A stretch of DNA of 59,866 bases, filler included, from Circinaria calcarea (lineage: Eukaryota): assembly GCA_051942165.1 (NCBI GenBank). It is 5 parts of 5 records of this genome, joined end to end, with 100 filler letters (N's around TTAATTAATTAA, not from the genome) between each part and the next. Parts side by side here need not be neighbours in the genome. Positions count along the whole stretch, not along the records: positions 48,003 to 59,866 come from JAVECS010000631.1; 4 more parts are not named here. One strand, given 5' to 3'. Made by a program: the position numbers and the translations under genes. Of the stretch, positions 11,906-59,866 are shown piece after piece. The notes under the pieces are model-generated. The model did no database searches. It was not told the origin of the DNA and was given only the letters and a program-made list of their open reading frames with translations. Positions within the stretch are counted from its first letter, which is position 1; each line of letters opens with the position of its first letter.

Positions 11906-12005
11906 NNNNNNNNNNNNNNNNNNNNNNNNNNNNNNNNNNNNNNNNNNNNTTAATTAATTAANNNNNNNNNNNNNNNNNNNNNNNNNNNNNNNNNNNNNNN
12001 NNNNN
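11906..12005. other. Artificial contig linker (N44-TTAATTAATTAA-N44)
   Basis: 100-nt spacer with a six-frame stop linker, identical at four positions. Confidence 0.98.
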
Positions 12006-19029: not shown

Positions 19030-20199
19030 TTAACCGTCGTTCTCCCTCTGATATCCAGCCCTTCCCCTTCGCATACGTTCCCCCAAGTCCATATCGCCCG
19101 CTTTACGACTCAAGCCGTTGATATAATCCCCACTCGCACCATGTTTTGCCGCCTTTGCTCTCGCAACTTCGTCTACTTCTCTGTCCCTATTCTCCCTTTC
19201 TGACAACGCTGCGAGCCTCTCTTCCCTGTCTCGATCTAGCTTACTAGCGTCCTCTTGCATTGCAGCTAACCTCGAAGCCCGATTATCCCCTTCAGGCTCT
19301 GGTCGTGATCTCTGGTTCGAGTTATGGGAGCTCCTCTGCAATGGTGTACTCCAGCTCTTACTTGGCTTCAGCCGGTAGTGGTTGTCCCGATACCTATCCG
19401 GAGATCTCGACCTCCGAGATATCGGTGATGATTTCCTTGCGTGATAATAGGGCGAGGGTGATCGACGTCGATATGGGGATAGAGACCGAGAAGATGATGA
19501 AGATCCTGAGCGTCGTCTTTCGTAATGCCTTGGCTCCCGATATTCTCGGTCCCTGGCTTCTTCAAATCTACGTCGCTTGTGAGAACGACCGTCATCACGA
19601 TCGTCCCGACGGTGATGATGATGTTTTCTGCCGTCACGGTTGCCGTGATGCCGATGCTTGTGATGCTTGCGGTCCTTCTCTTTCGTGTTTATATCCTGGC
19701 CTGCAGCTTTGAGCAATAGACGTCGGCGAACTGGATCGTTTATCATAGCTTCGTAGGCAGCTTGTTCTTGCTTCTTGATAGCGAGCATGGGATCCTCCCG
19801 AATCTTCGACGTCGTATCTTTGACAGTGTTGGCATACTGTAAGGCCATGAAGGATTCCTCGGTAGCGGCCTTTTCGAGCTTCTTAGACTCCGTACCCTTC
19901 ACTAAGCCGTCAATCCTCCTCTTGCCCAGTAAATAACCCTCCATCTCCTCGGTAGTACCCGCCTGCCCGCTCGATGGTCCGGAGTACATCCAGTCGACTC
20001 GGTTCAGTCTCTTTTTACCGCCAGCCGCTTCTTGCATTTCCTGTAATTCCTGTATTTGCCTTTCCTCTTGCCTTTCCTTCATCATCTGATCGATACGCTT
20101 ACGCTCGTCGAGCGCCTTTTTCTCTTCTTCCCATACCCGCCGCTGATTGCTCATGAGCACGGGGTGCCATGACTTTTTCAGATTGAGATCTCCACCCAT
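19030..20199 (-). CDS. CWC25: Pre-mRNA splicing factor Cwc25
   Basis: Starts MGGDLNLKKSWHP at 20199. Contains RVDWMY, EGYLLGKRRID, KIREDPMLAIK and an R/S/H-rich tail. Confidence 0.93.
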   Translation of the reverse strand: MGGDLNLKKSWHPVLMSNQRRVWEEEKKALDERKRIDQMMKERQEERQIQELQEMQEAAGGKKRLNRVDWMYSGPSSGQAGTTEEMEGYLLGKRRIDGLVKGTESKKLEKAATEESFMALQYANTVKDTTSKIREDPMLAIKKQEQAAYEAMINDPVRRRLLLKAAGQDINTKEKDRKHHKHRHHGNRDGRKHHHHRRDDRDDGRSHKRRRFEEARDREYREPRHYERRRSGSSSSSRSLSPYRRRSPSPYYHARKSSPISRRSRSPDRYRDNHYRLKPSKSWSTPLQRSSHNSNQRSRPEPEGDNRASRLAAMQEDASKLDRDREERLAALSERENRDREVDEVARAKAAKHGASGDYINGLSRKAGDMDLGERMRRGRAGYQRENDG

Positions 20200-23910: not shown

Positions 23911-24010
23911 NNNNNNNNNNNNNNNNNNNNNNNNNNNNNNNNNNNNNNNNNNNNTTAATTAATTAANNNNNNNNNNNNNNNNNNNNNNNNNNNNNNNNNN
24001 NNNNNNNNNN
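23911..24010. other. Artificial contig linker
   Basis: N44-TTAATTAATTAA-N44. Confidence 0.98.
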
Positions 24011-35911: not shown

Positions 35912-36011
35912 NNNNNNNNNNNNNNNNNNNNNNNNNNNNNNNNNNNNNNNNNNNNTTAATTAATTAANNNNNNNNNNNNNNNNNNNNNNNNNNNNNNNNN
36001 NNNNNNNNNNN
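35912..36011. other. Artificial contig linker
   Basis: N44-TTAATTAATTAA-N44. Confidence 0.98.
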
Positions 36012-39200: not shown

Positions 39201-42200
39201 AGATAGAAAAGACATCCATGTAACATCAAACATAGGTCCCACGTGCTTGAACGAGGTCGCAGGAATGTATTTGGGGATCTCCGGCTTAGTAGCAGTCTTT
39301 CTTTGTGATCGTAGAATGCTACGTATCCGCTGTTCCGCTTTGATCTGAATCTCTTCAGACGCCTGGAGAGCAGCTTCTCTTTGCAAATCTCGGTTCGTAA
39401 ACAGTGCCTGACCAGCCCGTTGTGCTATGCTCCCCGTGGCAGGCTGTACAGCTATTCCCATGGCGGCCGCGGTTTCACGTTCGGTCATCAAGACAATCTC
39501 GTTGTGGGCAATCTCATCATAAATGCCGCTTAGATACTCATCAGGGAGATCTGCATTGTCGTTTATGCCTCTATTGTTCTTGATGAAGTCTTCCCTGGTC
39601 ATTCTTTTACCTTTCATTTTCACACTATGCAGATCCGTATTGAGCAAAATAACAGAATAAGCCAGAACGTAGGCTGTATCGGCGTTTGCAAAGGCATTTG
39701 GGTTGCCCGTTATGTACCTTTCGGCGAATTTCAGCATGAACCGATCGATCTTCTGAGCCTCTCCAGGCAATCGAAAACTTTGAAGAAACTGTCTCAGCGC
39801 ATCAACGAATCTACGCTTGGTGAAGTCCATAGAGTCAACAAAAGCATGCATTATGGCGACGTTCCGTGGTTCGCCTTCACCCAGATATTCCCCAATCATA
39901 GCTTTATCCAGCCGATCATTCTGCGAGATAAATGCGGCAATGCCTTCTGGGGTATCATGCTTGATGAACCCATCGTTCAGTAGAGCTTTTATGCCACGCT
40001 TGGGCTTGAAGTTGAATAGTCGAATACCGTTTATCAAAGCCGTCTTTCGTTGCTTAGCTTTCTCGAGCTGACTAGGGTCGTCTTCCATTAAAGGGGTCGA
40101 TGGACCCATAGGTGTGTCAATTGCCAAAGGCCGCGGAGAACTGCCATTCTGAGCGGTTTCTATGGATTCCCGGAGATTGTCAAAAGAAGGTTTGCTATCG
40201 GTGTCTTGAAACCTGGACGACGTGGCAGCTAATGTTTCTTGGGACCAGTTAACTAGTGATTGAAGAGTTCGGACTAAGCATTCCAAAGACCGTTGCTTCA
40301 GTATAAAGTCCACTGGCAAATCCAATTCCTGACTAGGAGAATTCATCAGAGTCGCTGTGGTCAATGAAGGCGGTAGTTTCCCATGATCACGCCAGTCAAC
40401 GTCCCCTTCTAATCCCTTGGCATGTTGTTCTTGATAGATCACTTGCTGTTGAGACGAAACAGCTATGGAGGTGCTGGATATCCTAGAAAGGTGCTCAATT
40501 ATTCTCTGGAAGATGTTATCCAAGGCTGTTCGATCGCAGTCGTAATTTAAGTACATCTCGACAAGCGCTTGCGGCTCATTTGCAAGTCGGCTCAGGATCC
40601 TTAATATGTACAGCTTTTGAAAGCTAGGTGCATTTCGACGATCTAGAATGGTGAGGTAAATTTCTTTCAGGAAGACTTCAATCTCTCTCTGCAGTGAGAC
40701 TGGTCAGCATATATAGGATAATATGGGCTAGTACATACCTTCAGCATGACTCTCATGTATTTTAACATTAGCCAGAATATTTCACAGCTTGTCTCGAAAA
40801 CCTGTTTGACCGAGCTGGCCCCATTCCTGCTCAGGGTCAACCTGAGATACTGTGTAATTGCTTGACCAAAGCTTGCAGGCTCATTGTTCACACTACTTCG
40901 GATAGTGACCAATGGCGAAGTAAAGATTTCAATGTTGTTATTGAGCAAAGTACGAATGATGGCAAGGGATATCAGCTTCGAACGCATGACTTGGTTCTTC
41001 AGATCCTGTTGCTCATGCTGCATCGGTATCTTCTGAGCTAATCGGCACATCGATCGGAATACCAAGAATGCATCCTTGACATATATCTCGTCTTCTTCGT
41101 CTTCGTCTGAGATGCTATGCTCGATATGTTCCCTATGACCATTGAGGGAGGCCTGCTGTTCCGATACCGTCCGCAAAGCTTTGGCATTCGCAATTGCCCT
41201 TGTAACCATCGTTGGAGCATTGTCTCCAATTCTGGTGTCGTCAAAGTTTTTAGCGTTTTCGAAACTCTGCAAAGTCAATTTCTCGCCTGACTCCTTGCGG
41301 ACGGGTTGGTCGGATGGGATGATCGAGGCGGTCTCAGATGATCCGTCCACTTCAGTAGAAGTATCGTTCTCGTTGGTGGTGTAGATAGAGTTGTCTCCGC
41401 TTAGATCTACTTGACTTCCGTTGTCTGTCCCCTTTTCTGAAGCTAGCTTCGATATGCCCAGTCGAGCTTCCTTCATGACAAGTCTGACTTTAACCCTCTC
41501 GAAGACCGTACCGACCATCTGCGTCAAGGTGCCTTGGGCGACCTGCTGATTCGCACTGGATTTAGAGAGCAGGAATATGTTGTAAATCTGCCGCACGGCC
41601 TTTAAGAGACCAGCACCATGTACTATGATCTTATCGTTCAGTACGGCTGCAAGCAAGGACTTGACGATCTGAAGCTGGATTTCAGGAGGTGTTGCCTCAT
41701 CCTGAAAACAGTTGCAGATAGTATCGATAGCTCTTTCGATCAGTGGCATATGCGGCTGTTCTGAACCGGATATATCTTCTGAGGGATGCGCTGGCACTGA
41801 GAAATAGGAATATGTTATCAGTTTACCAATACAATCTAGGGCAGTAGTAGTTAGGGGTATGCTTGTATTGTCCGTAGCGAGGCGCAGGGGCTCAAATATA
41901 ACCTCTGGGTTCGTTGGGGCATCGCTCTTGAGTGCAGCCAGGGCGTGTTGTACGGAGTCATTCAGTCCTTTCCTTTTCCGCGCTTCTTTTGAGGCTGCAA
42001 TTGTCTCAAGAGCAGTAGACACGAACACCATAGAGCTCAAGGCGGAAGATCTTCGGACACCATTTGTAGCCTCTGGGCCTCGGCTGCCAGAGCGATCCCT
42101 ATCTCGACTCTGTCGTAAAGCGTTACTCATTGCCGAAGTGGATTTGATACTTCGAGCTTCGGGACTGTGGGGAGCGGGCGGTTGCTCTTCTAGCTTGTCC

Positions 42201-42505
42201 TTTTCTGGCGGCAGAGGGGGTTTGACTTCTTCTGGTCTATCTAATGTCGTGGGGTGATGATCATCATGGGGACTGAAGAAGCCATTCTTTGGAATATGCA
42301 TAGACTCATCCGCATGCCTCTCGTTTGACTCCTCCCCTGCTGCTTCCTCGCTGTCGTCCATCTTGAGCTCTATCCAATCCTGCCCGGTTTCCAATCGCGG
42401 CTTATCTCGTATAACCGATGTCTCTGAGTTATCTGTTGCTTTCTCCACCCCATTCTTCGCCATGGGTTGCTCCCCCTTAGCTCCTGAGTAGGCACCAGAG
42501 CTCAT
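36238..42505 (-). CDS. SEC7: Large ARF guanine-nucleotide exchange factor Sec7
   Basis: DCB/HUS regions (YLNYDCD), Sec7 domain with FRLPGEAQKIDRFM and LAYSVILLNTDLH, and HDS regions. Five ORF blocks joined by four short introns. Start Met at 42505 is the most 5' candidate. Confidence 0.95.
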
Positions 42506-42907
42506 TTTGAAGGAGCTGAGACTGTCCCCAGTCAACTAGATGACCACTAGGATTTCATAACTGTAGGGCTCTTTCTTTTTAACGCAGTTTGGTGGTAGTC
42601 GACATCGTAATGTCAGGGCGGTCGTACGTGGCTCCGCAACACCAACGTTACATGCATCGTGTCCGTGAGCTCGAAATAATGTTCTGTATCGTAAGATCGG
42701 CAAGTGACGCTAAGCTGCATGTGAGATCCTTGTTCACCGCGCACGCTAAAGTCCAGTAATGTAGAAAACGACCCAACAGCTTTGAAGACCGATCCATTGT
42801 ACAGCTTCATTGCACCTCTACTTTCTTTCACGAGAGGGGACTGCTAATCTGGTCAGGATTACTGTGTTTGTATCTTTGCGAATAGCCGTGGTTCTTCCTT
42901 TTTGGCT

Positions 42908-44607
42908 ATGTCTGCGACGGCAATATTATGCCGCGCATCGACACGGGCATGCTCTCGGGGACAGCATAGCTCGAAGGTGCTCACTTGGAATAGTACTCTA
43001 TCAGTCTCGCGGTACTGTCACTCCAAACATGTCAATGCATTAATTTAGCCTAGGCATTGCTAAGAGATCCTGTAATTGGACAGGAATATACCTGTTCTCC
43101 CCGCACTCTCAAGATACTATGCCTCGAAGTGTATGTTTTCTTTCTGGGCTATACACACAATGCAAACCAACTCATTGATTATCTTTAGCCTTTCCCCCAC
43201 ACACCGTCGTCAGTATGCCAGCGCTTTCGCCTACGATGACGTCTGGGAATATCGGGACATGGCAGAAAAAGCCCGGAGACTCGGTATCACCGGGAGATGT
43301 GCTGGTGGAGATTGAGACAGACAAAGCACAGATGGATTTTGAGTTCCAGGAGGAAGGGGTGTTGGCAAAGATATTAAAAGAGTCAGGGGAGAAAGATGTG
43401 GCTGTGGGCAACGTGAGCGTACCGATGGCAGTGGCTACAATTCTCGCTAATGCTGATCCAGCCCATTGCTGTAATGGTAGAAGAAGGGGAAGATGTTTCA
43501 GCCTTTGAGTCTTTCACTGTGGAAGATGCAGGAGGTGAGAAGGAGCCACCAAAAGAAGCGCCAAAGGAGGAAGCTTCACAATCATCCGAACCACCATCAT
43601 CAGGATCCCAAACATCCCCGCCTACAATTGAAAAGGCCGATTCGAAAGGCGATTCGAAATCCGAGCCCGCACCTGAACCCGAAGAATCGGAACCTATAGG
43701 CGGCAAATTGCAGACCAGCCTGGATCGTGAACCGTTAGCCAGTCCTCTTGCAAAAGCTCTAGCCCTCGAACGAGGCGTGCCAATCAAAGAGGTGAAAGCC
43801 ACAGGACCCAATGGCCGAATCACCAAGCAAGATATTGAGAAATACAAACCATCATCTAGTGCAGGACCTACAACGGCTTCCGCTGCCGCAGCTCCTTCCT
43901 ATGAAGACATTCCGGCTAGCTCAATGCGCAAAACCATTGCCAACCGCCTCGTTCAATCCATGAATCAAAACCCGCATTACTTCGTTTCGGCCACCCTCTC
44001 GGTCACTAAGTTACTGAAGCTCCGTCAAGCCCTCAACTCCTCCGCAGACGGTAAATACAAGCTCTCGCTCAACGATTTCCTCATCAAAGCCTGTTCTGTC
44101 GCCTGCAAGAAAATCCCGGCCGTGAATTCGAGCTGGCGAGAAGTGGACGGTCAGACCGTCATCCGCCAACATAACACCGTCGATGTCAGCGTTGCGGTAG
44201 CGACTCCGGTTGGCCTTATGACACCGATTGTCAAGGGGGTCGAAGGTTTAGGCTTATCAAGCATTTCAGCACAAGTCAAGGATCTCGGCAAGCGGGCACG
44301 GGACGGCAAGCTAAAGCCGGAAGAGTACCAAGGCGGCACCTTCACAATCAGCAACATGGGCATGAACGCTGCGATAGAGCGATTCACAGCTGTCATCAAC
44401 CCGCCCCAGGCTGGTATTCTAGCCGTAGGCACAACAAAGAAGGTCGCCATACCAGTGGAGTCGGAGGACGAGACGGCCGTAGCGTGGGATGATCAGATTG
44501 TCGTGACGGGCAGCTTTGATCACAAGGTGGTTGATGGGGCGGTGGGAGCAGACTGGATAAAGGAGTTCAAGAAGGTGGTAGAGAACCCGCTGGAGATGTT
44601 GCTGTAA
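42908..44607 (+). CDS. LAT1: Pyruvate dehydrogenase E2 (dihydrolipoamide acetyltransferase)
   Basis: Presequence exon from 42908, lipoyl domain MPALSPTM...[13 protein letters not shown]3-binding ASPLAKALA, catalytic [10 protein letters not shown] and FDHKVVDGA. Three introns. Confidence 0.95.
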
Positions 44608-45036
44608 AAGGTGGCCTGCTGTTCCTTCAAATGTGTAATATTGTTCTCCGTTTGCTCGCTGCAACTGTAGCTCCCCTGAGTTCGCTGTTGACCCATATAG
44701 CGGCTAGAACGAATGTCATGGATGATCCGTGATACTACTACTTTCCATATACTTTGCAAAATCACAGACCATGCAAACAGACTTCCTAGAGCTTCGAATT
44801 GCAATTTGAAAAGCATAGATTAGGTATGCAAAGGGCAGAAAGTTACTGAGTTATGCAGTGTGTAACGTAACATTTATATAGAGTGGGTCCACGACATTCT
44901 ATGTACAGCTCGCAAAGATGCCAATCAGAAAACGCCCCAGCTCATACACCACTTTAAACATACAATGTTCCAAATAAGCCGAGAGGTAACCCGCCTTAGA
45001 GAAAATGAATCTTCTCTCCAGGCTCCAATTCTAGTG

Positions 45037-46422
45037 TTATACAATGCCGAATCCATCCCGTGGATCGTTGTTCGAGTGAATCTCAAGTTGCCGCAAGATT
45101 CCCTGATAGAGGACCAGCATGGTTCCGCTTTGAACACTGGTCCAGACAGCTCGCGGTCCCACGCCTCGAAACCAACCCGCTAGACCCTCGGTCTTGTAGA
45201 TGAGCTTAAGGCCTGTGATGACGGATGAGGTGTCTAGGTTCACTGACCCCGGTTTCGGGATGGAGGTAGAGGGGGATGATGTTGATATATGCCGCCGCTG
45301 TTGGGCGACCTTCGGGATAAGGGGGTTTATCATGTTAGACTTGGTAGGAGGGGGAGCCGCAGGCTTTTTCTGCAGATTAGTTGTCTTGATTGGCTCGTGG
45401 CCTTCCTCGGGCGGATTCAACTGTGTTTGGATCCGGGTTTTAACAACATCCAGTGGACATGTCAAGACTCCGGCCATGCCACCCGCCGTAGCACCAGTGA
45501 CAATCTCCAGGCCAAGCCCAATATCTCGGTGTCCCACCCATTGCTTTGCCAATCGTTGTTCTTGCTCGTAAATGGCAAATTGAATGGCGGAGAATGGTAG
45601 ATCTCGAAATATGGTAGCCTTATAGCCGTGAAAAAGCGCGGAGACGCCTTCTTCGCGAACAATGGTCCTCGCAGCATCAAGGGTGGATCGATAGTTGTAA
45701 CCTGACTGGAAGAAAGGATTGTTGTAGCGACCTTGGAGTTGCAGTCGGGTTTTGAGAACTTCTGAAGGGACATAAACGAAGGAAGCGGCGAAATCAGCAA
45801 GGAATCCTGTTTATATTAGTCTATATTGAGATTGCATATGCAAAAAAGCGCACCTCCAGCCAGATATGCAAGTGAGTTGGGTACGCCTAAGTCTATTAAA
45901 TGCCGCTTGCTGTACTCGTATGTTCCGAAAAATATAACAGTACCAGGAAAGGAGCCAAGAAACGCCGGTGTCACTCCGCTGTAAAGTCCTCTCCGGACCC
46001 CTTCCTGCCGGAAAATCTTCGCATATGTAGAGGACATGGATGTGTATTTGGGAGGGATGTGAGGATCCCCCTGTTGGCGAGTCTTGACCGTGTCTATGGA
46101 ATGCATCAGAAGATCACCAGTGGTTCCACCGATGCCACCGGCAATCATAGACTGAGGCTGAATATCAGCATCTCCTAACCACAAAGAAAAACGTTACTCC
46201 GAGTAGGTTTCTTACGTGAAGGTACGGAGGGCGTTCCTCCTCTTCTTCCTCTTCCATAGCCCAGATCTCCGTTGACGGCATACCTCTGAATGATCCATAC
46301 GCTGAGCTTTTTGTGTTATTGACGCCATCACCGAGAGTGATTGTAGGGCGACCGTCCAATGGTGCAAGTTGCGGAGCTTGTGTCGGGATGAATAGGTTGG
46401 CCAGACGGGAGGCCAGGGACAT
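45037..46422 (-). CDS. Mitochondrial carrier family protein (MME1/PET8-like)
   Basis: Three carrier signatures (SIDTVKTRQQ, PSEVLKTRLQ, PLDVVKTRIQ). Two introns. Confidence 0.88.
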
Positions 46423-46780
46423 GACCCTTCCTCACGCTATTGGTTGTCGCTCTACAAAGATGCTCATGTGCACATCCTCATTCTCATGTGTGATATTGTT
46501 CTCCAAAAAACCGAACTAACAAACGTCCTGGACCTCATCAAATTTGAAGACGTAAACGGCGGAAGCTCTTTTGGCCGTTCCGCCGAGACGGCTTTGTCTT
46601 AGTGTTCGCGCGAAACCCTCTCCAGTACTCCCTAACGAGAAACAATGTAAACAACATCCCACCTCTTCATCGCCGCAACATCGACAAGCTCCGCCAACCT
46701 CGAAATTTTCTCAATAAATAATTGCATATATTCAATTTTATCGCAGCATTTACGCGACTGAATCTATCTTATTTGCGACA

Positions 46781-47902
46781 ATGTCTGGGGCTTCGACGTG
46801 GCTGCATAGCCAAAGGAAAGCCGAGCTCGTCTCGCTCGCTGAGAAGGTGGGCTTGGAAGAGTATTTTCTATGTACAACATATACTTCTACGCGTCAATCT
46901 CTAACACAGATCTAGCTGCGAGGGTCTAAAAAAGATTGAACTAGAGATGGCACTCGACGAGTACATGCGCGCAAACCAATCCAGGTTATCCAAAGACTCA
47001 AGTCTAGCAGCCTTTTACAGGCGCATTGCTACGCCTTCCTCGCCTGTAAAGAGAGAGAGTTCTGTCGCAGTAGTCGTGGGTGACGACAGCAAGAAGCCAC
47101 GAGCAAGGAGAACAACGAGAGCAAGAGATGATATTGAGCCGACGTAAGCTTGACTCAACCAATAATCATGGTCGCTAGCAGCCCTCTTTCTGACACTGAC
47201 ATGCTTTACCAATAGTGACGATTCCGAATTTGAACCAAGCAAATCCTTGGCAACCCGTAGTCCGCGCACCAGCTTATCTTTCGCCTCGACTGTCCCTCTT
47301 CCACCATCTCCTTCTGTCGTGGTTGACAAGATAGACCAACAAGCTGCCAACGTCCGTAACACGCTTGATGCATTGTGGGATCAGTCAGGCATTTCGCAGT
47401 TCTCCGATTCGCTACGTGATAAGCTCAGCAACACAGCCATAATCGAGACGCTAGCACTTGTCCTTGAGATATATGGGCTACGGCATGCGATCCTTCCATT
47501 TAAGTATTTTGGCATGATTCCATCCTATCACTTCCTCAACACGAGTACACCAAAGCTGGATCTCCAGGTACCTGACCTATTTGCGTTGCTCGACCCTGTG
47601 TTTTGGTCTACATCCTCATTGTGGTTTACCACGAGCGTTCTTCTGCCCTTAACCTTCGCTTACTACTTCAATTTCACTCGAAAGGCGAAGCGTGGACCGA
47701 GCAGACATACGAAGGCCTCCTCGGTAGGAGCCCAATACGACATGTTGACATTCAACATTGCGAAGGCATTGATTGCATGGTCAGTCTATAACCAGGGCCT
47801 AAGACTTGGTGGTCTTGTGGGGAATGACACGGTGCAGAGAATCGAAGAAGCCATTCCGGGCGGGCATCGAGGGATCCTCATCGGCGCAGGAATTGGGGTG
47901 TT
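46781..47902 (+). CDS. Conserved-looking fungal hypothetical membrane protein, 3'-truncated by the contig end
   Basis: MSGASTWLHSQRKAELVSLAEKVGLE start and two introns join it to ORFs 46947 and 47247. Several hydrophobic segments in the C-terminal half. Confidence 0.7.
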
Positions 47903-48002
47903 NNNNNNNNNNNNNNNNNNNNNNNNNNNNNNNNNNNNNNNNNNNNTTAATTAATTAANNNNNNNNNNNNNNNNNNNNNNNNNNNNNNNNNNNNNNNNNN
48001 NN
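47903..48002. other. Artificial contig linker
   Basis: N44-TTAATTAATTAA-N44. Confidence 0.98.
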
Positions 48003-49457
48003 ACCCGGTGGATGTATGCTGAGAGGATATTGTTCTGGCTTTCCATGGAAAGCTCCTTGGCCAAGTCTTCCTCCATAGGTATTTCAACCCATCCAGCAGC
48101 AACAACTCCTGCTAATCCTTCTTGCCTAAGCCAAACAGGATCACCGTTACGAATGAGAACCCAGTCACCGGATGACAACGTCACAGCAGATCTGACAGCA
48201 AAGCCTGAACCACCTTTTGACACAACCTCTGATACTGCATGGACAACGTCTTCTTGTTCTGTCCACCCGCCATGGCTTTTAGGACTTATCGGCCAACGTT
48301 CCAGTATCCCATGAGAGCTCGAAGCGACGAGAGTGACCTCAAAGTCAGTGTTCCTGGTAAAGTATACATTTGCATTCCTTGTGCTTGTCGAGAATGCTCC
48401 CTGTCCACCTACTCGAGGGAGATCGTATGCTTTAGCCACAGTTCGTGCGGCGACATCGATATGGTAAACCTGTGCCCAGTGTGAATCCGAGGTCTGATAA
48501 TGGACCAGGAAATGAGGTTGAGCGTTGGCGGTGTTGGGTGCGTGGACGGTAAGTTGTGTTATCGCCTCCTTTTCATAATCTCCCACGTTGATACTGGTAA
48601 CGTGTTTCGAGCCTAAAACGTTGATTTTCAAGGTCTTGGAAGATTTCTCCACCCACAATAGCGTCGGTGCCGCAACGTTCCCTGCAATCTGCACAATTGG
48701 CTCGTCACTATCTAGATTGAAGGTGTGATGCCATGTCTGTGTAGCCTTGACAGGATCTAATGTAGTCACCCCGATTTTGAACCCCTTTAACAATGCTGAA
48801 TGAAGGGAAACGAGATGAATATCCGTAGCCGAAGCCGATATTGCGAGCGGTGTATCTCCACTGTGCAAGTCAGCAATGAACCAAATTAGTCATGTCAATC
48901 TCCTGCCCATCTCACCTCTCATCAATATAAGTCCATACAACTTGTCCATCTGCAGTTCCCAGTCTCGTAATTATGCTTTTGCCCTCCTCTAGACTGAGGA
49001 CAATCACATCTTTACTGGCTCCCTCCATTTCCAGAACCTCCAAGTCCTGAATCATACCCTTCGTCTCCCATGCCCACGCCAATCGTCCGTCTGCCGCATC
49101 CCAAGCTTTCACAGCACCTCCTACAGCGCTAACAATTACATTCTCTCCTTCTCCGGCCTTCAAAAAGCTCCTCGCAGCTGTCCCGTTGTACACATCTTCT
49201 TTCAAGTATTGCCGCCAAACGATTGCGCCATCTTTGGGATTCACAGCACCTAGTACATGCTTTTCGGAGAGGGTGTAAAGTAGAGAAGCTTTCGAAGCGG
49301 CCGAGGGTCGGTGGAAGAATGTGGTATGCGGCTGGGGAGTGCCTAAAAGGGCATGGTGGTAGTCGTTTTGATAGGCTTCGTCTGCGTATATTGCTTGTGC
49401 GATTGGGACGAGTAAGGACAGAGGTAACAAGAGGAGGGAGAGCGCATGAGAGCGCAT
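48003..49457 (-). CDS. EMC1: ER membrane protein complex subunit 1 (N-terminal beta-propeller part), 3'-truncated
   Basis: Signal peptide, then AIYADEAYQNDYHHALLG, LGAVNPKDGAIVWRQ and WLRQEGLA...AYIHR. One intron near 48915-48862. Confidence 0.88.
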
Positions 49458-49911
49458 ATTATCGGACACAAGCACTGTATTGTATATGTCTTCTCAGAAC
49501 CACGACGAAGTATGTTACTTCCGACTAGCTTGTCCTTATTCAATGCAAAACATCATCGGACCCTGAAGATCACTGCCTCGATATCCAGCCCTAAGGGAGA
49601 TATCTCCTATCTAGAACAAGAGCACATTGGCTTATATAAACAAAACAAATTCAACCGTGTGTATTATTTAATTAACTGGACTTTTGTCTACTCAATCACA
49701 AGAGAGTCATCTTAGCTAAGTAACGCCTAGGTGAGATTCACGCAGCTCTTCGTCCAAACTCTGCGCATCTATTCGACATGGACGTCTGCTAACAACAGCA
49801 AGTTTCACCATTCCAAGCCTACTCAGGTCTAGGATAAGAATTATAGGAGTGCCAGTTAGAGATAAATCAGATAACGAAGGTAAATCCGTAAACGGTATTC
49901 GCTCATGCTAG

Positions 49912-52900
49912 TTATTTTCTCGACTTTTTGCTAGCCTTCTTCTCAGACTTGTTCTTTGGGCCCTTTTTGACTGGCACGACTTCACCGTCGGTGTCATTGT
50001 CGCTCTTATCGTCCTTGGAGACAACCATGGACCTGTGCCTAACTTGGGCTTTAGCACCCAACCTTGCCGGCTCGGGGAATTCCTCTACATCACTCTCCCC
50101 CCTGGTGTCGCCAGTCTTGGCTAGTGAGTCATCCTGCGAGCCGTCCTCCGTGTTATCTTCTGAGTCATCTGAGTCATCTGAGTCATCAGACTCTGACTCC
50201 GACTCGGTGTCGACATCTTTTTCACTTTCCGGCCTCCTGGCCTTGCTCGCCTTTCCTGCTCGCGCTGAACTTGGGGCTTTCGCCGAAGCTCTTGCCAGTG
50301 TTACAGGCTCTACCTTTTCCGGTTTTATCTTACGTTGATGCCAGCGGTCGTCTCTAACCTGATCGTCGTGTGCAATTTTGTACGCGTCCCTACCCTTATA
50401 GACCGATAGCAGGTACTCATCAAATTCTTTCGATGCTTGTGCCACTTTTTCGAACTGCGAACGATTCAAAATCGGGGTTGAATCATTTTTCACCTCAAAA
50501 TCGGCGATTGCAATAGCTGTTTGAACGGCGTTGCGGATCTGTCTGCAATAGGAGGCATTATAATTAGCCTTTTATGCGTAGTTTGGGTTAGCCATCTGGT
50601 ATGCGGGTTGAATTTCATACCTTCCATTCCAATTCCCCATACCTAGTCTTTTGAGCTCCTCGAAATGTGATTTGGCAAAGGCCAATATATCATTCTTTTC
50701 GATCTTGAATGCTTTCCCGTCTTTCTTCAAAGCCTCCTTGATCATTGACAAGTTATTCTTCCAGATCTGTACCGTCGTCGTCTTATCCAAAGCAGGGTAA
50801 TGAAGAGTGATATGGATTCTTGATTTGAACGCCTGATCGACTGTACCAACACGGTTGGTGGTGAGGAAGAGGATTCCCTGCGCATATGTAAGCTACCCTT
50901 TTTGATTGCAATGCTGAATAAGTAATTCATACACTGTAGTACTCTAAAGTTCTCAAGAAGACTGGTTTAACATCAGCAATAAGCCTTGGAGGATTGATTC
51001 TTTCGAGTTTGTCTTACCTGAGACGATGGCATTGCGTGTTAAGTCTTTAGTGGTACGTTTGTGCAGGAAAACACTTTCCAATGTTAGATCGGTCTAATGA
51101 AAAGATGTATGAACTTCTACAATCGAGTATTGTTGAAAATTGCTTTTCCGACTAAGAGCAAGCCGGCGACGCCAAGGGAGAGTAGAATAAATTCACTTAC
51201 TCGGCCTCGTCAAGAAGAAGAACACAACCCCATTTATGCGCGAGCTGGAAGTTTTTTTCAAGTTGTTCTTCTACCTTTTCTGCGTTCTCCCCAATATCGC
51301 CGCAGGTAATAGCGAATAGAGGTCGCTTGGTATGATCGGCAACGCACTCAGCGGTACTGGTCTTACCGACACCAGGCTCACCATGAAGAAGGATGATGAG
51401 TCCCTTACCCTTGCCTCGCACTAAATCAGATGATGAGAGCATATTCTTCTGGTTTTCCTGCTGCTCTGGATAACGTGCGCGATTTCGCACCAAAGCCAGC
51501 ACGGTTTCTTTATGCGTTGATGGGATTACCAGTTGATCCCATCCATCTGTGTAAGTGACATCTTGGACTTTGTCGATATCAAATGTCGCCCACTTTCGAC
51601 TTCTCAGAACAAAGCCGTAAACCCGCCAAGGTAATAAAATTTCCATATCTTTTTTTAAGTACTTAGCATCGTCTACTGGATCGAGCAGATTCTTCATGTC
51701 GTTCAGGAACTTGTTCTGGTTATTTTGGTCAATTAGAGAGTCAGGGAAAATATAATCATTCCCACAACATCCTTCTGTTCCACATCTACCAAGGTTCGCC
51801 GGGTCCTCCATATGTTCACGAGGATCATGATTGACAAGGGTACCTACTCCCAGCTTGGGTTTGTTTTCAGCCTTCGTTATAAAGCTTAGCTGAAAGTCAA
51901 TAATAATCTGTGAATCAACCTAGTACTTTGTAAGCTAGTCCTTTAGAGGTTTAAATTCTCTTGCGGGCTTACAGACCTGTTCCTGTTGTTGTTCGGCCGT
52001 TAACCCACTATACTGCTTGTGAGATACAACTTTAGTATTTGCAAGCCTTATAAATTCTTCCCCGCGTTTCCGCAAGTCTCGACGGGTTTTCTCCTGGTTG
52101 GGATCACACATTAACGGAAATACTGGCAACGAAGCAACGTCTTTTTCGCCGTCATATCTTCGAATCATGACTGTTTTGTTGACTGGTCCGAACTGCACTC
52201 CGTCGAAATCTACGTAAAAACATTCGACAACGAAGGCCTCCGCAGAGTATCCTTCCGCGCTGAGTTTTTGAGATGCGTGGTCCGGCGGAATGTCCTGTCT
52301 CGGCGACAGTACCTCACGGCCACCAGTGAATGCCAAAACACGGTAGCTTATAGGAGATAGTAAGCATGAGTTTAATAAACACAGGATTCATCGCTAGAGG
52401 AGCAAATACAATAAGAATTCTTACATTTGAATCTGTTTGTTATCAGGAGTCCGGACTTCTTGCCCATGTTCGAAGAGATGCCAAAGATCAGGAAACGCTA
52501 TCTTGCGCAAAGTTCCTGCTGCAAGACTACGACGCAACTCCCACATTGGATATAGATCACAGTCCATAAACTCGACTAAGAGACGGAGATGTTCCAATGC
52601 TTCGGGTGTTTCTGTCTCCTTAAGTGGGAGTTGAACAGCCGAAATGCTCCCGAGCTCGGCTTCCTTGTAATCATTGCATTCGCGGCTACCTTCAGCAGCA
52701 AGCTGCCTGTTCTGAAGATTAACCCGGTCCGACCCTAATTCTCCAATCGATGGGACTTTATCCAGGTCCTGACCCTCAGTAAGTGACGGTGTACACTTCT
52801 CCGTTGACGGTATTCCTGTGACTTTGTGCTTAGACTCAAGCAATTTGAGACGCGCTCGTATTTCATTCGCATAGGTGAATAGTAAGTTAAACGGACGCAA

Positions 52901-53827
52901 GAATACTAGTTTCTCTTTACTCTTACCCCCTTCTACCTTTGCGTTTGAGATCTCGTCTAGTATTTTTAAGAGTATGGTCGATCGAATGCGCAAGCGTATT
53001 GGAACACCTGTATTATGCCTGTTATGCATAATAGCTGCTTTCGAGGATTCGAGAGTATCTCTACTACCATAGCTTCTAGGCACCGAAGTCGCAGATGGCA
53101 GGCTAATTTCCTGGCTTTGAGCTTCCTGTATGTCGTCAATGCGGGAATCTTCAACCAAGACTTCCAAAACACTTTTAGTGGCCGGATCGTATTCGTCAAC
53201 ATGTTGCCACATTCTGAGGTCATTGGAGAAAGGTTTTACTTTGAAGTCTGCCCAAGCTAGTCGTACGACTTTCAAATGGTGTTTAGGACCTGAGTAAGCT
53301 GCAACTTCGTCAAGATACGGGGGACTTTGCTTTGATAGCAAGGCAAGTTCGGTTTCCAAAGCAACTATCCGATCTTCCACAAGTTTTGAGTACATATGGG
53401 CCTGTTTTGCTCGTCGGGCTGCTTTCATCCTGCGTTCTGAGAGCGATAATCTAGATCTGTCAACAACAGTAGTAAAGAAGTACTCGTCGTGTAGATCTTC
53501 GTCGCCTTGAGAGTCAGTATCGTCGTCGATCTCGCCAGACTTTATGACTCTATCAGTCTCTGTATGATCCTTTTTCCCATCCAATTTCTGCACATCCACA
53601 TTCTTATCGGCTATCGTAGCTTGAGCATCATCTTCCACGTTGCTCATTTTAGGAGTATTCGAAGTATTCATGGCTAGAGCTTGATCGATCCCATTATATC
53701 CCAGCTCTTTTTCGTTACTGCCATCCATTTTGGTAGTAGTATTGTTCATACTTGACTCGGATGTGGTTTGTTTAGCTGCAGCAAATTCTGGGGCTTGACG
53801 TGCTTGGTGATCCAGAAACGGCGGCAT
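49912..53827 (-). CDS. Large fungal AAA+ ATPase with long N-terminal domain (7 exons), apparently intact
   Basis: Walker A in GKGKGLIILLHGEPGVGKTSTAECVA, Walker B VLLLDEAD, VFLRTLEYYSGILFLTTNRVG, AFKSRIH and WNGRQIRNA. N-terminal motifs RLRIRS, FLRPF, I.FPDLWHLF, YVDFDG and VDSQIIIDF. All six introns reconstruct in frame. Confidence 0.88.
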
Positions 53828-54583
53828 GTGGTATGAAAGCTAAGTTGAAACAATTAATAGGGAGGGTTGAATAATAACGCTGCTGGAAAACGTCAAGAGT
53901 ATCAAAGCTCTGAGAAAGATAGAAGATGATTCGAAAAATGCGACGATCTCGTTCACTATGACTTATCTAGATCCATCAGGGGCAAGGCTTTAAAAGCCAC
54001 GATAACTGTAAGGGTAGCACGACATGTGCGGCTTAATCCTTTAGGCTTCAGCCAATTGTCTGTTGGACTTCGTGGAGGGGGAAAAAATAATCATTGGGTG
54101 AATTCTTTTGAGGCGGCAAGTTCAATTTTCCATATATCCCCATAATGTTCCAGCCTCCTCTAAAACGTTATTCAACATTGGTCAAGGGAGTTGGGTTACA
54201 CGGAATCAAACCAATTACCGAAAATCGCGCAACACACAATTAACCCAGTTAACGAAAATCGCGCAACGGAGCATCTACGTCCAGTAGCCGCATTACTCTT
54301 CAAATTTAGTTGGTCCCTTGTCCTATTTAGATCTCCTGTTTTGGTGGGATGGTGTGGTAGGAGGAGTTGGCACAAGTGCTTAGTGGTTGACAGCACCAAG
54401 CTACCGCTACCTTGGGTACAGCTCGTGGATCTTTTCATGTTCGGCGCCTGTTCGAGAGCCATTCTGTACGACGCTTGTCACCACACTTACAGCTATTAAG
54501 GTCTTAGGCTTTACCTTACTCTCTCCAATAGTTACGGTAATGCTATTCATGAGGAAGTGGACTACATCAATCTTTCAAGCACC

Positions 54584-57013
54584 ATGGCCTCCTACTTCCC
54601 ACGTCGCCGCCCAAAAGATATCCCTGCGAGGTTTATTGAAACCAATGTAGCACTATCACGCGATTTCGAATACGTCGAGTCACTGAGAACATTTATGTCA
54701 GGATCAGACGCGAGAGAGCACGAGCAAAAGATGTATACCTTTTAAACCTCAAATAAATTGGGAACTGGTCATCTAACTTCTTGCCGCAGTAAAACTCTCT
54801 GGGACGATACTCGCCAGCAAAAGGACGCTCTCTTTGGGGCTATGAAAGAATTCCAGAATAACTTAGCGAAGAAAGATCCCTCAATAATAGCGATAGATTT
54901 GAAGACATGTAGTTGGCCGGACGTTATGAGGGAGTTTAACCGAGCACAGCAATATCATAAAGAAAAGACATGGAGCAGGTATAAGCCTATCTCCCAATAT
55001 CTCCGGGCTTTTGGAGCAAAAGCCCAATTTCTGGGACAATGGGTAGAACTCCTTCCAGCTGGCGACTACGGAGCAGGTCTATGTGGTACGTGTTTCCCTC
55101 TAATCTTCTGTTTTCCCTTTTCCGACGGTTACTGATTAAAAACCACTGTATCTGGATAGGTGCTCTCAAATTGATCCTAGGCGTAAGAATAACTCACACT
55201 GCATGAATGCAATACGGAAATGCGGCTAACGAGGTGCTAAATTAGGCTGCAAGTCGTCTACATGATATTCGTACCTTTGTTTACATGGCTCTATCTGAGA
55301 TCCCTGATGCGGTTGAGAAAGCAAGACGCTACATGAATATTTACAAAAACACGTCAGCATTTCAACTTACACAAAGGACAATAGAGCTTTACAGCGCTAT
55401 CTTAGTAGCACTAAAAGATATTATGGATTATTTCCTAGATCGTCCGGCTAGTATGTCAACCTTGACAATTCATATAAGCCCTTATTAATTTATGGAAATC
55501 AAGGAAAGATCTTCTCCTCAATGATCTTTGGCAGCGGCTACAAAGCTAGTCTGGAGGAAAGCGTCAAGAAGATCAAAGATTGCGTGTCGCGCCTTGATGA
55601 CGAGGCGAATATGTGTAATCAAGAACGAAATGATACGATGGCAACAAATATCAGATATATTATGCAAAACTCCGAGGCAGTAGGTAGGGAGAGATATACA
55701 CACCAAATCACCGACGGAGCCGCAGACCTACGAAGGTTGAAAATCACCGAGGAAGACTTTGGTCAGGCCCAATACAGGAAGATCGAAAAAGATTTGATTT
55801 CAAACATCCTCAACACCTGTAAAGAATTGCTCTCGGCGAATCCTAGAATCGATCATTGCACTGGGTTGCCACGTGAAGAGGGTAAAGCCATATATTGTGT
55901 AATTGTTTTGCGGGTGTTTCTAACAAACAACAGTCAAAAAAACGAATCACGCGAATCGCCCTAGACGACATAGGCATACACCGAAAATCGAGTCGCTATC
56001 AGTAACAGAGGATATAAAACCTAAAGGTAAGTGCAGTTATATCGTACCTGGCGGGGGATCTGTGTGTGTTAGGCTGCAGTTGATCTGAGCTCTGGGAAAA
56101 CTGTATCTTCTGGCTGGGGGTCTCCGTTGGTAAAGCCGAGAGCGATTTTACCTGGCTCATGTCAACTTGACTCAAGCCTGCATGACGTGCTGTACTGTGA
56201 CAGGCTTCTTGACAATCGGAATAATTTTAACATGACCTTCTAGGTGTTCCGTCCGAAGAAATGATAGCACTTTTGATCTACCGACCCGACCACATTATCC
56301 AAGATTTGGAGGAATGCTGCATCTTTGGAGAGATGATGGGCGAGGAAGAAAAAGAACAAGCGTCCAGGGCTACTCGCTCCGACCAGCTGCGTAAATTCCT
56401 CACGGAATCTAGCCAGTCCCGCGCGCTGCTCATCAACGGGAACTTTGATGATCCCAATCCCACGTCGTCCTTGTCATTTCTCCTGGCAAAGATATCACTC
56501 ACGTACAGCGATGCCAAGGATGTCATAGTGTTGAGCTATTTCTGTTCACTTCATGCCGACGTCTTCGATCCTAGGGCTAATGCCATAGGAATGATGATCA
56601 GTCTAGTCGGCCAGCTACTCTCGTACCCAGGGCTCGATTTCGACCTGACATTCATGGATGAGGAGTTGTGCAATCTTATCGAAAGAGACGATTGCAAGGC
56701 ACTCTGCACCGTCTTCCTACATCTGATAGCGCAGCTGGCTAGGTTGAAACTAGTCTTCTGCTTCATTGACTCGATATCCATTTACGAAACGGACACACGC
56801 GTCGAAGACACGGAACTGGTGTTATCCACACTCACGAACCTTGTCAGCCAGGACGGTGGTGCCATTTTCAACCTACTGGTGACCGATCCTGGGAGAAGCC
56901 TCTGTGCGAGTAGATATATTACCGAAGATGAAGAAGTCTTGGAAATGGACGACTCCATAGACGATGATGGACATGGCATCCTCGATCTTGAGGGATTATC
57001 TGGAGGTCAGTAA
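54584..57013 (+). CDS. STAND/NACHT-like protein: helical N-terminal domain plus NACHT-like NTPase with degenerate P-loop and no sensor repeats (7 exons)
   Basis: Introns at about 54733-54789, 55086-55160, 55184-55245, 55451-55503, 55882-55933 and 56026-56243 give one open frame. Motifs LLPAGDYGAGLCGALKLILGAA, LY..IL, LLINGN at the Walker A position, VLSYFC, MMISLVGQLL, VFCFIDSISIYE (Walker B-like) and NLLVT. Confidence 0.7.
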
Positions 57014-57307
57014 TGGAGAGTCTTAATGGCTCTCGCACTGGTTTGGTGGTATTTGGATAAATTAAATTAGTAACTTCATTCTGGACGTTCCTGAATAAAA
57101 TATACCCATACTCGTATTATCTGCAAGCTTGCATGTTTGTATTGCCGTTTGGATATATTCGTTGCAACCAAAGACTTATGAATCCAGACCTAATTATCTG
57201 ACTAACATCTCGCCCTAAAGACCACTGTCTGTATGTACTAAGTAGCTCCCAGAAAAGAAAACCAAATTCATCGCAAAAGAAGTCAACTCGAGGCTCCTGA
57301 CCTTTTA

Positions 57308-59600
57308 TTAAGAAACGGGATAACTTAGTATTCTCGCAGCTTGTTTGTCCTGATAAAGGTACAAATCAATAATCGGTGAGATCCGTGGGCTTGGTAAGCT
57401 CGGGGTTGGCGGGAGGGGCCGGTCCAGTGCCAGTAGTTTGTGTGGAGCTGATGGATAAGTCACTTTTACGCCGCATATTGAGCTCTCAGCGGGCAGGTGA
57501 ATGGCGAACCTTTTGTTTCGGTTGGGGCTTATGAACGCGGAAGGCCCACCCATATCCGAACGAGCTATTGGCTCGCCTGTCATGGATTGATCTGACTGCG
57601 GCAGTTGCGTAACTTCTTGAACTGATACGGAAGTAGATCCTTCAACTCGCAGCTCTGCTATTCCGCTGTCATCCATTTCCCGATACCCGAAAAACAGGCT
57701 GTTGTTATCGATTTCCTGTACTTGGGAGATCTCCGGTGGCTCTATCTCTTCTGGGGGCCTCGAAGGGGTAGCGGCAGCGCCCTTCCGTCGTTCAACTTGT
57801 GCGGATCGCCATTTATGCCTGATGAAAGCCAGAAATAAAACTCCGAGCGTCAGAAACCCAGCAATTCCCAAGGCTATACCAATAATACGGCTCTTATTGA
57901 CTTGCGGAGCTGCTGGAGGATTCGTTGAAATAGCTGGAGGACTTGTTGAATCAGCTGGAAGATTTGTTGAATTAGCTGGAGGATTTGTTGAAATAGATGG
58001 AGGGTTTGTTGAAATAGCTGGAGGATTTGTTGAAATAGATAGAGGATTTGTTGAACGAGCTGGAAGATTTGTCGAATTAGCTGGAAGGAATGGCTATGAT
58101 GTCATTCTCAAGACCGTCTATGTATTTGCATTGAGAGACGGAAAAATTGGAGTGTTCGTAGTTGGTGATAACGTAGCTAGAAGAAATTTAGTGTCCTATA
58201 TGGCGAAGATAGTTTATTTTAGGATGCTTACGCTTCCTGTAAAAAAGTTCGACCAAGAGTGTATTGGGATTCATATTTTGCTTGTTGCAAAGGGAAGTAG
58301 CGCATGGGTCTCTCTTCAAATGGAGGGTTTGCCATGAGATTGAAAGCTGCATAGGGCAAGACAATATCCACAGTAGGCCCACCGGAAAGAAGACCTCCAA
58401 TTTGGAACGTAAAATTATATCCATTTGCGGTTAAGTTATCGTGCAAATCATCGCTTATCAAGTACAATTTAGTCAAATTGTCTAGGGCCAATCCAAGTTC
58501 CTCTTCAAATGCTCGACAAGCTTCCAAGGGCAGATAAATCCACGGTATGGTTGAATCGATAAAGGTAAATATCGGTGATGGAAGAAGCGGAATAGTGGAT
58601 CCAGCAGAGCTTGTCAACGAAATTGATTGGAGGCCGACGACAAGGTCACGGGAGATATCAGGAGCAAGGAAAAAAGGAACGTTGTTAGGCACAAAGCGTG
58701 AAAGATCATAGCCTCCAAACGTTAAGCTTCCGAAAACACCTTTGAGCTCTATGACGAATTAGAAACTATATTTGCACTCCATGATAACAACACGTAGATC
58801 GGGTTCAGGTCTCTCGGCAGCTTCTCCATGTTCCGCAGTATCTAAGACGAAAAGTTTCACTTACGATAGTGTGCACCCGCGGTGTAACTCCAGGAGAGAC
58901 TTGGAATCATATTCCTTGTTTTCAAAGTTGCTAAAAAGCTCGGTTGAGGATTTTTATAGTCGGACAGGTTGGTCGGCTGCTGACCCAAGCCAAACATGCC
59001 CACGTAGTAGTAGTACTCGTCAGCAATACCAGCGATCATTTGAGACTCTAAGGGAGCGGCACCGCTAAAGCCTAGCGCCAGTTTATCGTGCCCATATAGC
59101 CCGCTCACATTGTAGCCAAGATTGAGCTCGAGGCCTAGAGAGTAGTAGCCGGTGCTATTCCAAGACTCGGATTCGGTGTAATGGAAAAGGCCACCGCGAG
59201 ATTGATCACAGTTCGAAACGGTGCTACCCTGACAACCTAAGGGGATGACGACCCATGTTGCCTGCCCAGCAGTCGAGATAAGGACACGGACGACCTGCTC
59301 CGGAGTTCCTACCCGCAAGGCAAAGGATGACCATAAACCATCATCACCGTCCCTAGAAAGTATATCAGCAGCTACAAGACTGTGGATTAGGTTGAGCAAA
59401 CCAATATTGCGAAGGGGGCCAAGAAATAGGTGATGGTTGGAGAGTCATCATCACGAAAGGAAACCCAGAGACGTTCTGTATCAACCAAATTCATCTAGAC
59501 TGAAATCGCGGGAAAATCCAGTCTGATCTTACACGCAGCTGAGTAGGTTCAACGAGTTGTAGAATTAAGACAAGGAATAAGGACCAGGACAGCAAATCCA
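57308..59600 (-). CDS. Pepsin-fold aspartic-protease-like protein with S/T/P stalk and TM anchor; frameshifted (possible pseudogene)
   Basis: PPSQYWDGDDGLWSSFALRVGTP, IPSLSWSYTAGA, GSLTFGGYD, FIDSTIPWIYLP, YTLGRTFLQEAY and NFSVSQC. In-frame TAA at 58079-58077; the stalk, TM and tail lie in another frame. The 5' start is unresolved and approximate. Confidence 0.75.
57914..58087 (-). repeat. Coding minisatellite, about 8 x 21 bp (peptide consensus PPAISTN)
   Basis: Units encode LPANSTN, LPARSTN, PLSISTN, PPAISTN, PPSISTN, PPANSTN, LPADSTS and PPAISTN. Confidence 0.9.
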
Positions 59601-59866
59601 GCTAATGATTAAGGTCTCCCTCTAAAAGGTAACACCTGTTCCCAGATGGTTTTTGTAACCTTCTCTTACCTTTTTGTCTGGACTTACCTAGCCGTCCTTG
59701 TGCATTTGATACTTCTCTTGCCCAATAATTTCTCGTCCACCTAAGTGCGCCAAGACATAGGAGGTTTACCTACGCCCTGTAACTGAAAGGGAGTACATGC
59801 TTTAAAACGCTACTTGCCTTACCAGTCCTCAGCATACCAACGGGATGTTTTACCTGCTGGGTCGGA

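Follow-up and report, generated by a model that had tools for sequence, protein, structure and literature searches.

In plants, sensor/helper pairs of NOD-like receptors (NLRs) such as RGA4/RGA5 and RRS1/RPS4 consist of divergent, co-acting immune genes, one of which can have a degenerate P-loop. We describe here a divergent gene pair from the lichen-forming fungus Circinaria calcarea (Lecanoromycetes; assembly GCA_051942165.1), located within a stretch of DNA of 59,866 nucleotides (hereafter the window). One gene encodes a DUF7025-AAA-AAA_lid_13 ATPase, and the other encodes a protein with a DUF7708 domain followed by a NACHT-type domain devoid of Walker A, designated pseudo-NLR in the following. 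In contrast to the plant pairs, the gene partnered with the pseudo-NLR is not an NLR, and a sensor domain occurs in neither of the two proteins.

The nearest fungal counterparts of the pseudo-NLR are the Goodbye-like/NACHT NLRs (Dyrka et al. 2014, PMC4986451; Wojciechowski et al. 2022, PMC9815663), among which non-canonical P-loops have been recorded (PMC4986451). As far as the available text of these surveys allows the comparison, the pseudo-NLR belongs to the same N-domain family and is homologous in the core of the nucleotide-binding oligomerization domain (NOD), but it lacks the Walker A lysine, the "DE" following the Walker B aspartate, the helical third domain and the repeats, and a length of ∼600–650 aa is found in 80 of its 150 best relatives. 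The NWD2/HET-S and FNT1/HELLF pairs likewise combine an NLR-family gene with an adjacent fungal partner, to which, in the available accounts, it is functionally coupled (PMC5485727; bioRxiv 10.1101/2020.07.22.215483). Here, however, the partner is an AAA ATPase instead of an effector of the HeLo/HELL type, the two proteins have no short motif in common, and the cell-death-type head is borne by the NLR-like member itself.

The two genes lie head to head in the window and are arranged as follows.

49912..53827, minus strand: DUF7025-AAA-AAA_lid_13 ATPase gene; 7 exons, 1154 aa (spliced frame, with Pfam searches on exon translations)
53828..54583, no strand: region between both start codons, 756 bp; presumed bidirectional promoter
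54584..57013, plus strand: gene for the DUF7708 plus Walker-A-less NACHT-type (NPHP3_N-like) protein; 7 exons, 637 aa (spliced translation identical to database protein P0001)

A preliminary description of the window had reported two intact seven-exon genes, divergent over 756 bp from ATG to ATG and adjoining EMC1, one of them encoding a large AAA+ ATPase with complete Walker A and B motifs. Both spliced frames could be rebuilt; GEPGVGKT and VLLLDE were located in the 1154-aa frame, and a Beta-prop_EMC1_N match at 48912–49493 on the minus strand (E 4e-23) confirmed EMC1 as the neighbour of the AAA gene. The features of the locus are beyond chance because both reading frames, together with their adjacency, are conserved in other fungi.

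The best non-self match of the pseudo-NLR is GP486_001573 (KAH0565034.1; P0002) of Trichoglossum hirsutum, and that of the AAA protein is GP486_001572 (KAH0565033.1; P0157) of the same fungus, with 63% identity over the queried region; the two are consecutive genes on a single contig of 24,819 bp. The survey of linkage was then based on 21 non-self clusters of the pseudo-NLR family, compared with 120 listed AAA-family matches out of 1506. Both families were listed in eight species. The genes are consecutive in four of these, namely T. hirsutum, Cirrosporium novae-zelandiae (M1834_000955/000956), Coniochaeta ligniaria (OIW31234.1/OIW31235.1) and Xylariales sp. PMI_506 (KAH8649230.1/KAH8649231.1). 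In three others (Tuber indicum, 94,398 bp; Tuber brumale, 222,289 bp; Macrophomina phaseolina, 367,135 bp) the scaffolds bearing them are identical in length, and in the remaining species they lie on different contigs. The preliminary description had made its proposal dependent on homologues being linked in other fungi, and linkage was indeed observed in seven of the eight species with both families listed. The species carrying both genes span the Lecanoromycetes, Geoglossomycetes and Xylobotryomycetes, and we take the other genera to extend this range to the Sordariomycetes, Dothideomycetes and Pezizomycetes.

The same two genes were also detected head to head on a metagenome contig (L001), the one metagenome locus recovered, at 35% identity in the C-terminal domain (C-domain) of the pseudo-NLR. 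Colinear tblastx blocks match window positions 50308–52909 to 4497–6853 of L001, and 54619–56917 to 8615–10687; the spacing is alike, while the flanks are unrelated. The pseudo-NLR gene of L001 contains the motifs LLVNGN, YFC, CLVDSLSAYE and KLLVT. No third conserved gene was found in the tblastx comparison of window positions 40000–59866 with L001, which were colinear at the pair only. Downstream of the pair, L001 carries Myb_DNA-bind_8 open reading frames (ORFs) at 16034–16744 and 19514–20089, both on the minus strand, with several ORFs lacking Pfam matches between them; the window shares none of these ORFs.

Collectively, a conserved, divergently arranged pair is supported. Judged from gene order and homology, the pair is a real, old two-gene module of the filamentous ascomycetes (Pezizomycotina), and the comparisons show that its two genes were inherited together across classes while its surroundings changed. 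The two genes could alternatively be neighbours merely by descent, or share a compartment rich in multi-copy genes, with the plus-strand gene a decaying NLR remnant and no functional link between them. Both families are in fact multi-copy, and one species has its listed copies on different contigs. This explanation nevertheless receives hardly any credence from us, in view of the linkage in seven of eight species, the retention of the pair at 35% identity between differing flanks, and best matches that are themselves neighbours of each other. The intact plus-strand frame, its confidently predicted fold and the conserved residues described below are equally difficult to reconcile with a decaying remnant.

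The pseudo-NLR gene was analyzed further in terms of its exons, domains and motifs. Its splice model agrees letter for letter with the database protein P0001 (637 aa).

54584-54732, 54790-55085, 55160-55182, 55246-55450, 55504-55881, 55934-56026, 56244-57013, plus strand: exons of the splice model
55064..55625, plus strand: DUF7708 (Goodbye-like) helical N-domain, residues 142–265, spanning introns (PF24809, 35.1 bits, cut-off 25)
56252..56959, plus strand: STAND-type P-loop NTPase-fold domain without the Walker A lysine, residues ∼385–620 (AlphaFold2 (AF2) model, fold matches, Atlas NPHP3_N clusters at 0.98–0.96)
56426..56443, plus strand: LLINGN, residues 443–448, at the strand-1/P-loop position, replacing GxxxxGK[ST] and followed by SSLS
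56753..56788, plus strand: Walker-B-like strand VFCFIDSISIYE, with D557 and E563 conserved

For this protein, the preliminary description had claimed a helical N-terminal domain, a NACHT-like fold in which LLINGN takes the place of the P-loop, and a C-terminus without WD40, TPR or ankyrin repeats; the presence of a STAND/NACHT fold was, besides linkage, the second point on which it made its proposal depend. All of these claims hold. The N-terminal domain scored as DUF7708, and helices are distributed between residues 40 and 289 (H40–H289). In the Atlas, residues 1–300 fall with DUF7708, Goodbye and NACHT_N clusters at 0.94–0.90. DUF7708 was above its cut-off in 30 of the 46 relatives scanned, and UniRef names some relatives "Fungal STAND N-terminal Goodbye domain". 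Fold matches for this domain came from a search with the whole protein and were only weak helical ones (a designed helical protein and CAMP factor, Z 8.8), under the level that is meaningful for helical bundles.

Exon 6 (55934–56026, plus strand, 93 nt) encodes a basic, low-complexity linker, which AF2 renders disordered (residues 358–377, predicted local distance difference test (pLDDT) below 50). Its skipping would be in frame, and an alternative isoform is therefore possible; the annotated protein retains the exon.

The C-domain was folded with AF2 from the last exon (255 aa) together with 39 relatives, and the resulting model (pLDDT 91.8; predicted template modelling score (pTM) 0.90) displays an alternating strand-helix core of the P-loop type. 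In a VIA-align run against 48,161 chains, the top match was the STAND protein Avs3 (Z 13.1; 200 residues aligned, root-mean-square deviation 4.2), followed by Cdc6/Orc1 and ORC subunits (12.7–12.3), the ZAR1 resistosome (11.7), CED-4 (10.7), Apaf-1 (10.1) and MalT (9.8). Foldseek was in agreement, its best matches being ORC/Cdc6, MalT and Avs3. The Pfam family NPHP3_N reached its cut-off in 25 of the 46 relatives scanned; P0001 itself has no match, and P0002 scored 24.4 bits versus the cut-off of 24.8. A PDB sequence search with the C-domain profile returned chance-level matches only (E 0.04 and 0.83).

The sequence G-x4-GK[ST] occurs nowhere in P0001. The Walker B region is similarly divergent: relative to the NACHT consensus hhhhD[GAS]hDE, as quoted in PMC12258605, VFCFIDSISIYE fits at D-S-I, but S-I-Y-E stands in place of "DE", and the consensus of the region across the family is FCxIDGISxYE. 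A helical third domain (HETHS/winged helix) is absent after the core, as the chain ends at residue 637, some 25 residues past the last core strand (E613–615), in a low-confidence tail. No repeat family (WD40, ANK or TPR) was detected in P0001 or in the 46 relatives scanned. The pseudo-NLR, as judged from its sequence and predicted fold, is thus derived from an NLR NOD, yet lacks four of the five features by which such a domain is defined.

The C-terminal 25 residues (∼56936–57010) of the pseudo-NLR and its close relatives form an acidic tail after the last strand, of the pattern [DE]-h-x-h-P/D-x-x-h-D-G/D-x-x-x-G-V-x-x-L-E. This tail may be a short linear motif and, as such, a candidate handle for the AAA partner.

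These peculiarities extend well beyond the Circinaria locus. A phmmer search with P0001 against 1.84 billion representatives yielded 1478 proteins at E<=1e-3, of which 634 were at E<=1e-10 and 75 at E<=1e-30. Among the 150 best of the 1478 relatives, none carries the canonical Walker A (G-x4-GK[ST]), and 103 carry an LLxNGN-like motif; 80 of them are 560–700 aa in length and 39 are fragments of at most 330 aa. The predicted dead P-loop is therefore a family-wide trait, and the degenerate P-loop and apparent loss of the sensor are not peculiar to Circinaria but common to a large fungal family. D557 is invariant in 40 aligned C-domains. Over 80 full-length sequences, D557, F481-C482, Q505-L506 and E563 are each at least 90% conserved, and E563 is also at least 90% conserved in the C-domain alignment. 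The possibility that the plus-strand gene is a pseudogene or NLR relic was considered and rejected in view of its intact frame, its fold and this family-wide conservation. One member of the family, EKG12893.1 (P0027), is entered in the 2022 NLR catalogue as GOODBYE-LIKE, with both the NOD and the C-terminus "unannotated" (PMC9815663). Pattern scans of two other collections gave 8 matches in viral_contigs and 68 in genome_contigs, with no relatives among either, as expected of collections that contain no fungi.

The AAA gene on the opposite strand has the following components.

53827-52425, 52346-51977, 51919-51201, 51073-51018, 50961-50933, 50877-50621, 50542-49912, minus strand: exons of the splice model
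52109..52510, minus strand: DUF7025, across intron 1, approximate limits (PF22942, 53.7 bits in exon 2; 16.5 bits, below cut-off, at the end of exon 1)
51359..51382, minus strand: Walker A GEPGVGKT, residues 771–778 (motif position read directly from the sequence)
51206..51223, minus strand: Walker B VLLLDE, residues 824–829 (motif position; intron 3 splits the codon after A830)
50395..50790, minus strand: AAA_lid_13 (fungal AAA+ lid), across intron 6, approximate limits (PF23232, 45.6 bits in exon 7; 15.5 bits in exon 6)

All six introns are of the GT..AG type (55–127 nt), and the coding sequence of 3465 nt has a single, terminal stop. The database model (P0003, Q9187_003654) is only 831 aa long and ends in LLLDEAE, having run on into the intron 3 donor (GA/GTAAGT). 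Its first 830 residues are identical to those of the spliced model, and the four exons past its end (49912–51200) complete the AAA fold and supply AAA_lid_13, bringing the total to 1154 aa. By blastp, these last four exons align with the complete relatives P0157, P0190 and P0004 through the lid domain.

The AAA protein contains all three Pfam domains in order, together with Walker A, Walker B, sensor 1 (TTN at 865) and the arginine of the second region of homology (SRH; FKSR at 876), and from these motifs the ATPase is predicted to be catalytically intact. The same architecture is present in the partner AAA proteins of six other species and in a second DUF7025-AAA-AAA_lid_13 protein of C. calcarea located outside the window (P0245, Q9187_001547; 1146 aa, 37% identical). 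The family comprises 1506 clusters at E<=1e-3 among 7999 candidates scored. The protein is assigned to the classical AAA clade because its nearest solved structures by sequence are Rix7, NVL, p97 and Msp1 (PDB, E 1e-10 to 1e-7). It shares Walker A, Walker B, the sensor-1 asparagine and the SRH arginine with the classical-clade proteins Rix7/NVL, p97/Cdc48 and Msp1/ATAD1, but differs from them in its single AAA module, its fungal-specific DUF7025 N-region, its AAA_lid_13 and the GDIG at the presumed pore loop 1. The latter forms part of a T-C-G-D-I-G sequence (residues 796–801; 51299–51316, minus strand), nearly invariant in 45 members of the AAA family and situated 22–24 residues past the Walker A lysine. 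We take this position to be pore loop 1, the site of an aromatic residue in those AAA proteins that thread their substrates. The AAA protein has no apparent transmembrane segment (maximum Kyte-Doolittle-19 score 1.41).

The last 144 residues of the AAA protein (49912–50343, minus strand) form a charged tail with 31 K/R, 34 D/E and 20 S and a lysine-rich end, and the tails of its relatives are similar. Targeting to the nucleus or nucleolus is one possible role of this tail; it might otherwise be a disordered region engaged in interactions. The charged, lysine-rich tail would suit a second explanation, in which the pseudo-NLR serves as a cofactor or anchor that recruits the AAA ATPase to a third substrate or site, perhaps with no link to immunity. 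Recruitment by cofactors is used by p97 and by Pex1/Pex6; moreover, the conserved linkage would fit any obligate partnership, and both genes are surrounded by housekeeping genes in the window. Conversely, both domains of the pseudo-NLR come from families that otherwise stand at the front of fungal NLRs, according to the available text of two surveys (PMC4986451, PMC9815663). The pseudo-NLR family is, in addition, large (1478 representatives) and fast-diverging, the identity between species of different genera being 24–41% for the pseudo-NLR versus 34–48% for the AAA partners. We regard a recruiting role of this kind as unlikely.

We consider it probable that the two genes constitute a functionally coupled module. 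About half of that probability is assigned to a model in which the AAA ATPase acts on the pseudo-NLR itself, and this model, which we prefer, is accordingly put forward as a tentative one. The pseudo-NLR retains a Goodbye-like head of the four-helix-bundle type and a NACHT-type core NTPase fold, but would not be a nucleotide-driven switch by itself, because no Walker A lysine, helical NOD subdomain or repeat sensor is left in it. The 756 bp between the start codons would drive expression of both genes, whose products would work in a common pathway. A pseudo-NOD without the usual nucleotide binding and hydrolysis, and without a sensor, would have to be controlled from outside, presumably by its one constant companion, the active AAA ATPase. 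The latter would supply in trans the ATP-dependent step missing from the dead NOD, and would remodel the pseudo-NLR or set its oligomeric state, and hence the activity of the Goodbye-like head. The output would be a response of the cell-death or immune type. According to the available text of PMC9815663, the four-helix bundle of Goodbye-like domains is also found in HeLo and MLKL, and a non-amyloid control has been proposed for these domains. The complex of AAA residues 120–745 with the pseudo-NLR C-domain was predicted with a score of 0.00 versus the mark of 0.34, in a run without alignments that gives no verdict either way.

A more specific version of ATPase action on the pseudo-NLR would be an ancient "split" NLR-like death switch, in which the nucleotide dependence of a Goodbye-head protein has been handed to a dedicated AAA ATPase across a shared promoter. 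We judge this version improbable, albeit worth stating in its two forms. In the guard (toxin-antidote) form, the AAA ring would constantly keep the pseudo-NOD proteins apart, such that they would oligomerise and cause cell death once ATP was lost or the ATPase inhibited. In the arming form, the AAA ring would strip the N-terminal extension off the Goodbye domain.

Several fungal incompatibility systems rest on NLR-like genes and gene pairs, and the head-to-head arrangement would be in keeping with a polymorphic allorecognition (het-type) locus, an option raised in the preliminary description. The arrangement and the architectures, however, are kept across classes, which resembles a conserved function and not a lineage-specific het locus. 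In addition, no amyloid-type motif of the NWD2/HET-S kind is shared by the partners, as the best local match between P0001 and the spliced AAA protein reached only E 1.1 (blastp, word size 2, no filters). We therefore deem an incompatibility function very unlikely.

Several points weigh against the coupled module and, in particular, against action of the ATPase on the pseudo-NLR. The identical-length scaffolds of T. indicum, T. brumale and Macrophomina were taken as the same scaffold in each species, which says nothing on adjacency, and the species with its listed AAA copy and pseudo-NLR homologue on different contigs is Apiospora rasikravindrae. Thirteen of the 21 non-self clusters fell outside the linkage count, 12 of them from species or strains beyond the 120 listed AAA matches and one being a cluster without names. 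Orientation is known for the window and L001 only, so that the four consecutive cases represent adjacency in annotation order. Pairwise identities among the pseudo-NLRs are correlated with those among their AAA partners (Mantel r 0.65, reached by 35 of 5040 permutations; seven pairs, T. brumale dropped), but this would equally be expected of two unlinked orthologues tracking the species tree, and is counted only as consistent. In the AAA protein, the non-aromatic GDIG is awkward for a substrate-threading unfoldase, if the assignment of pore loop 1 is right, and the charged tail might indicate a function in the nucleus that has nothing to do with cell death. These two features are the main observations at odds with a simple unfoldase-guard picture.

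No published description of the pair was found in the full-text literature. Full-text searches for DUF7708, DUF7025, AAA_lid_13, five locus tags and pseudo-NTPase or degenerate-P-loop NLRs likewise returned nothing, and no characterised member of the DUF7025-AAA-AAA_lid_13 type was found in the literature searched. The available portions of the NLR surveys (PMC9815663, PMC12258605 and PMC4986451) make no mention of an AAA neighbour for Goodbye-like proteins. The component families are known. What appears to be new is the conserved pairing, together with a sensor-less, P-loop-less class of NLR-derived proteins that has a dedicated partner ATPase. The family, which has entered NLR catalogues with its NOD and C-terminus unannotated, represents this distinct class with its own partner, and counts of fungal NLRs should reflect it. 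The module is compact and conserved, and brings a Goodbye-like domain together with a NOD blind to nucleotides and a dedicated ATPase of the AAA type, in a two-gene system that is open to genetics and biochemistry. The control of Goodbye-like domains is described as an open question in the available text of PMC9815663. Were the split death switch true, it would constitute a new wiring of an NLR-type effector, and would provide a compact two-gene test system for the Goodbye-like domain, the commonest N-domain of fungal NLRs and still without a function.

The remaining features of the window lie outside the pair. Downstream of the pseudo-NLR gene, an ORF on the minus strand (57308–58093) looks like a mucin-type single-pass membrane protein, with STNPP(A/S)I-like repeats in tandem and a hydrophobic stretch after them; it has no Pfam match. 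A long ORF on the opposite strand (57621–58337) mirrors these repeats and probably does not represent a real gene. An aspartyl protease gene follows in fragments (58228–59444, minus strand; PF00026, 20 bits, one exon), a neighbour that the pair lacks on L001. Runs of 44 N were observed in pairs at 11906–12005, 23911–24010, 35912–36011 and 47903–48002, the last pair splitting the EMC1 gene; their regular spacing of ∼12 kb suggests masking rather than assembly gaps.

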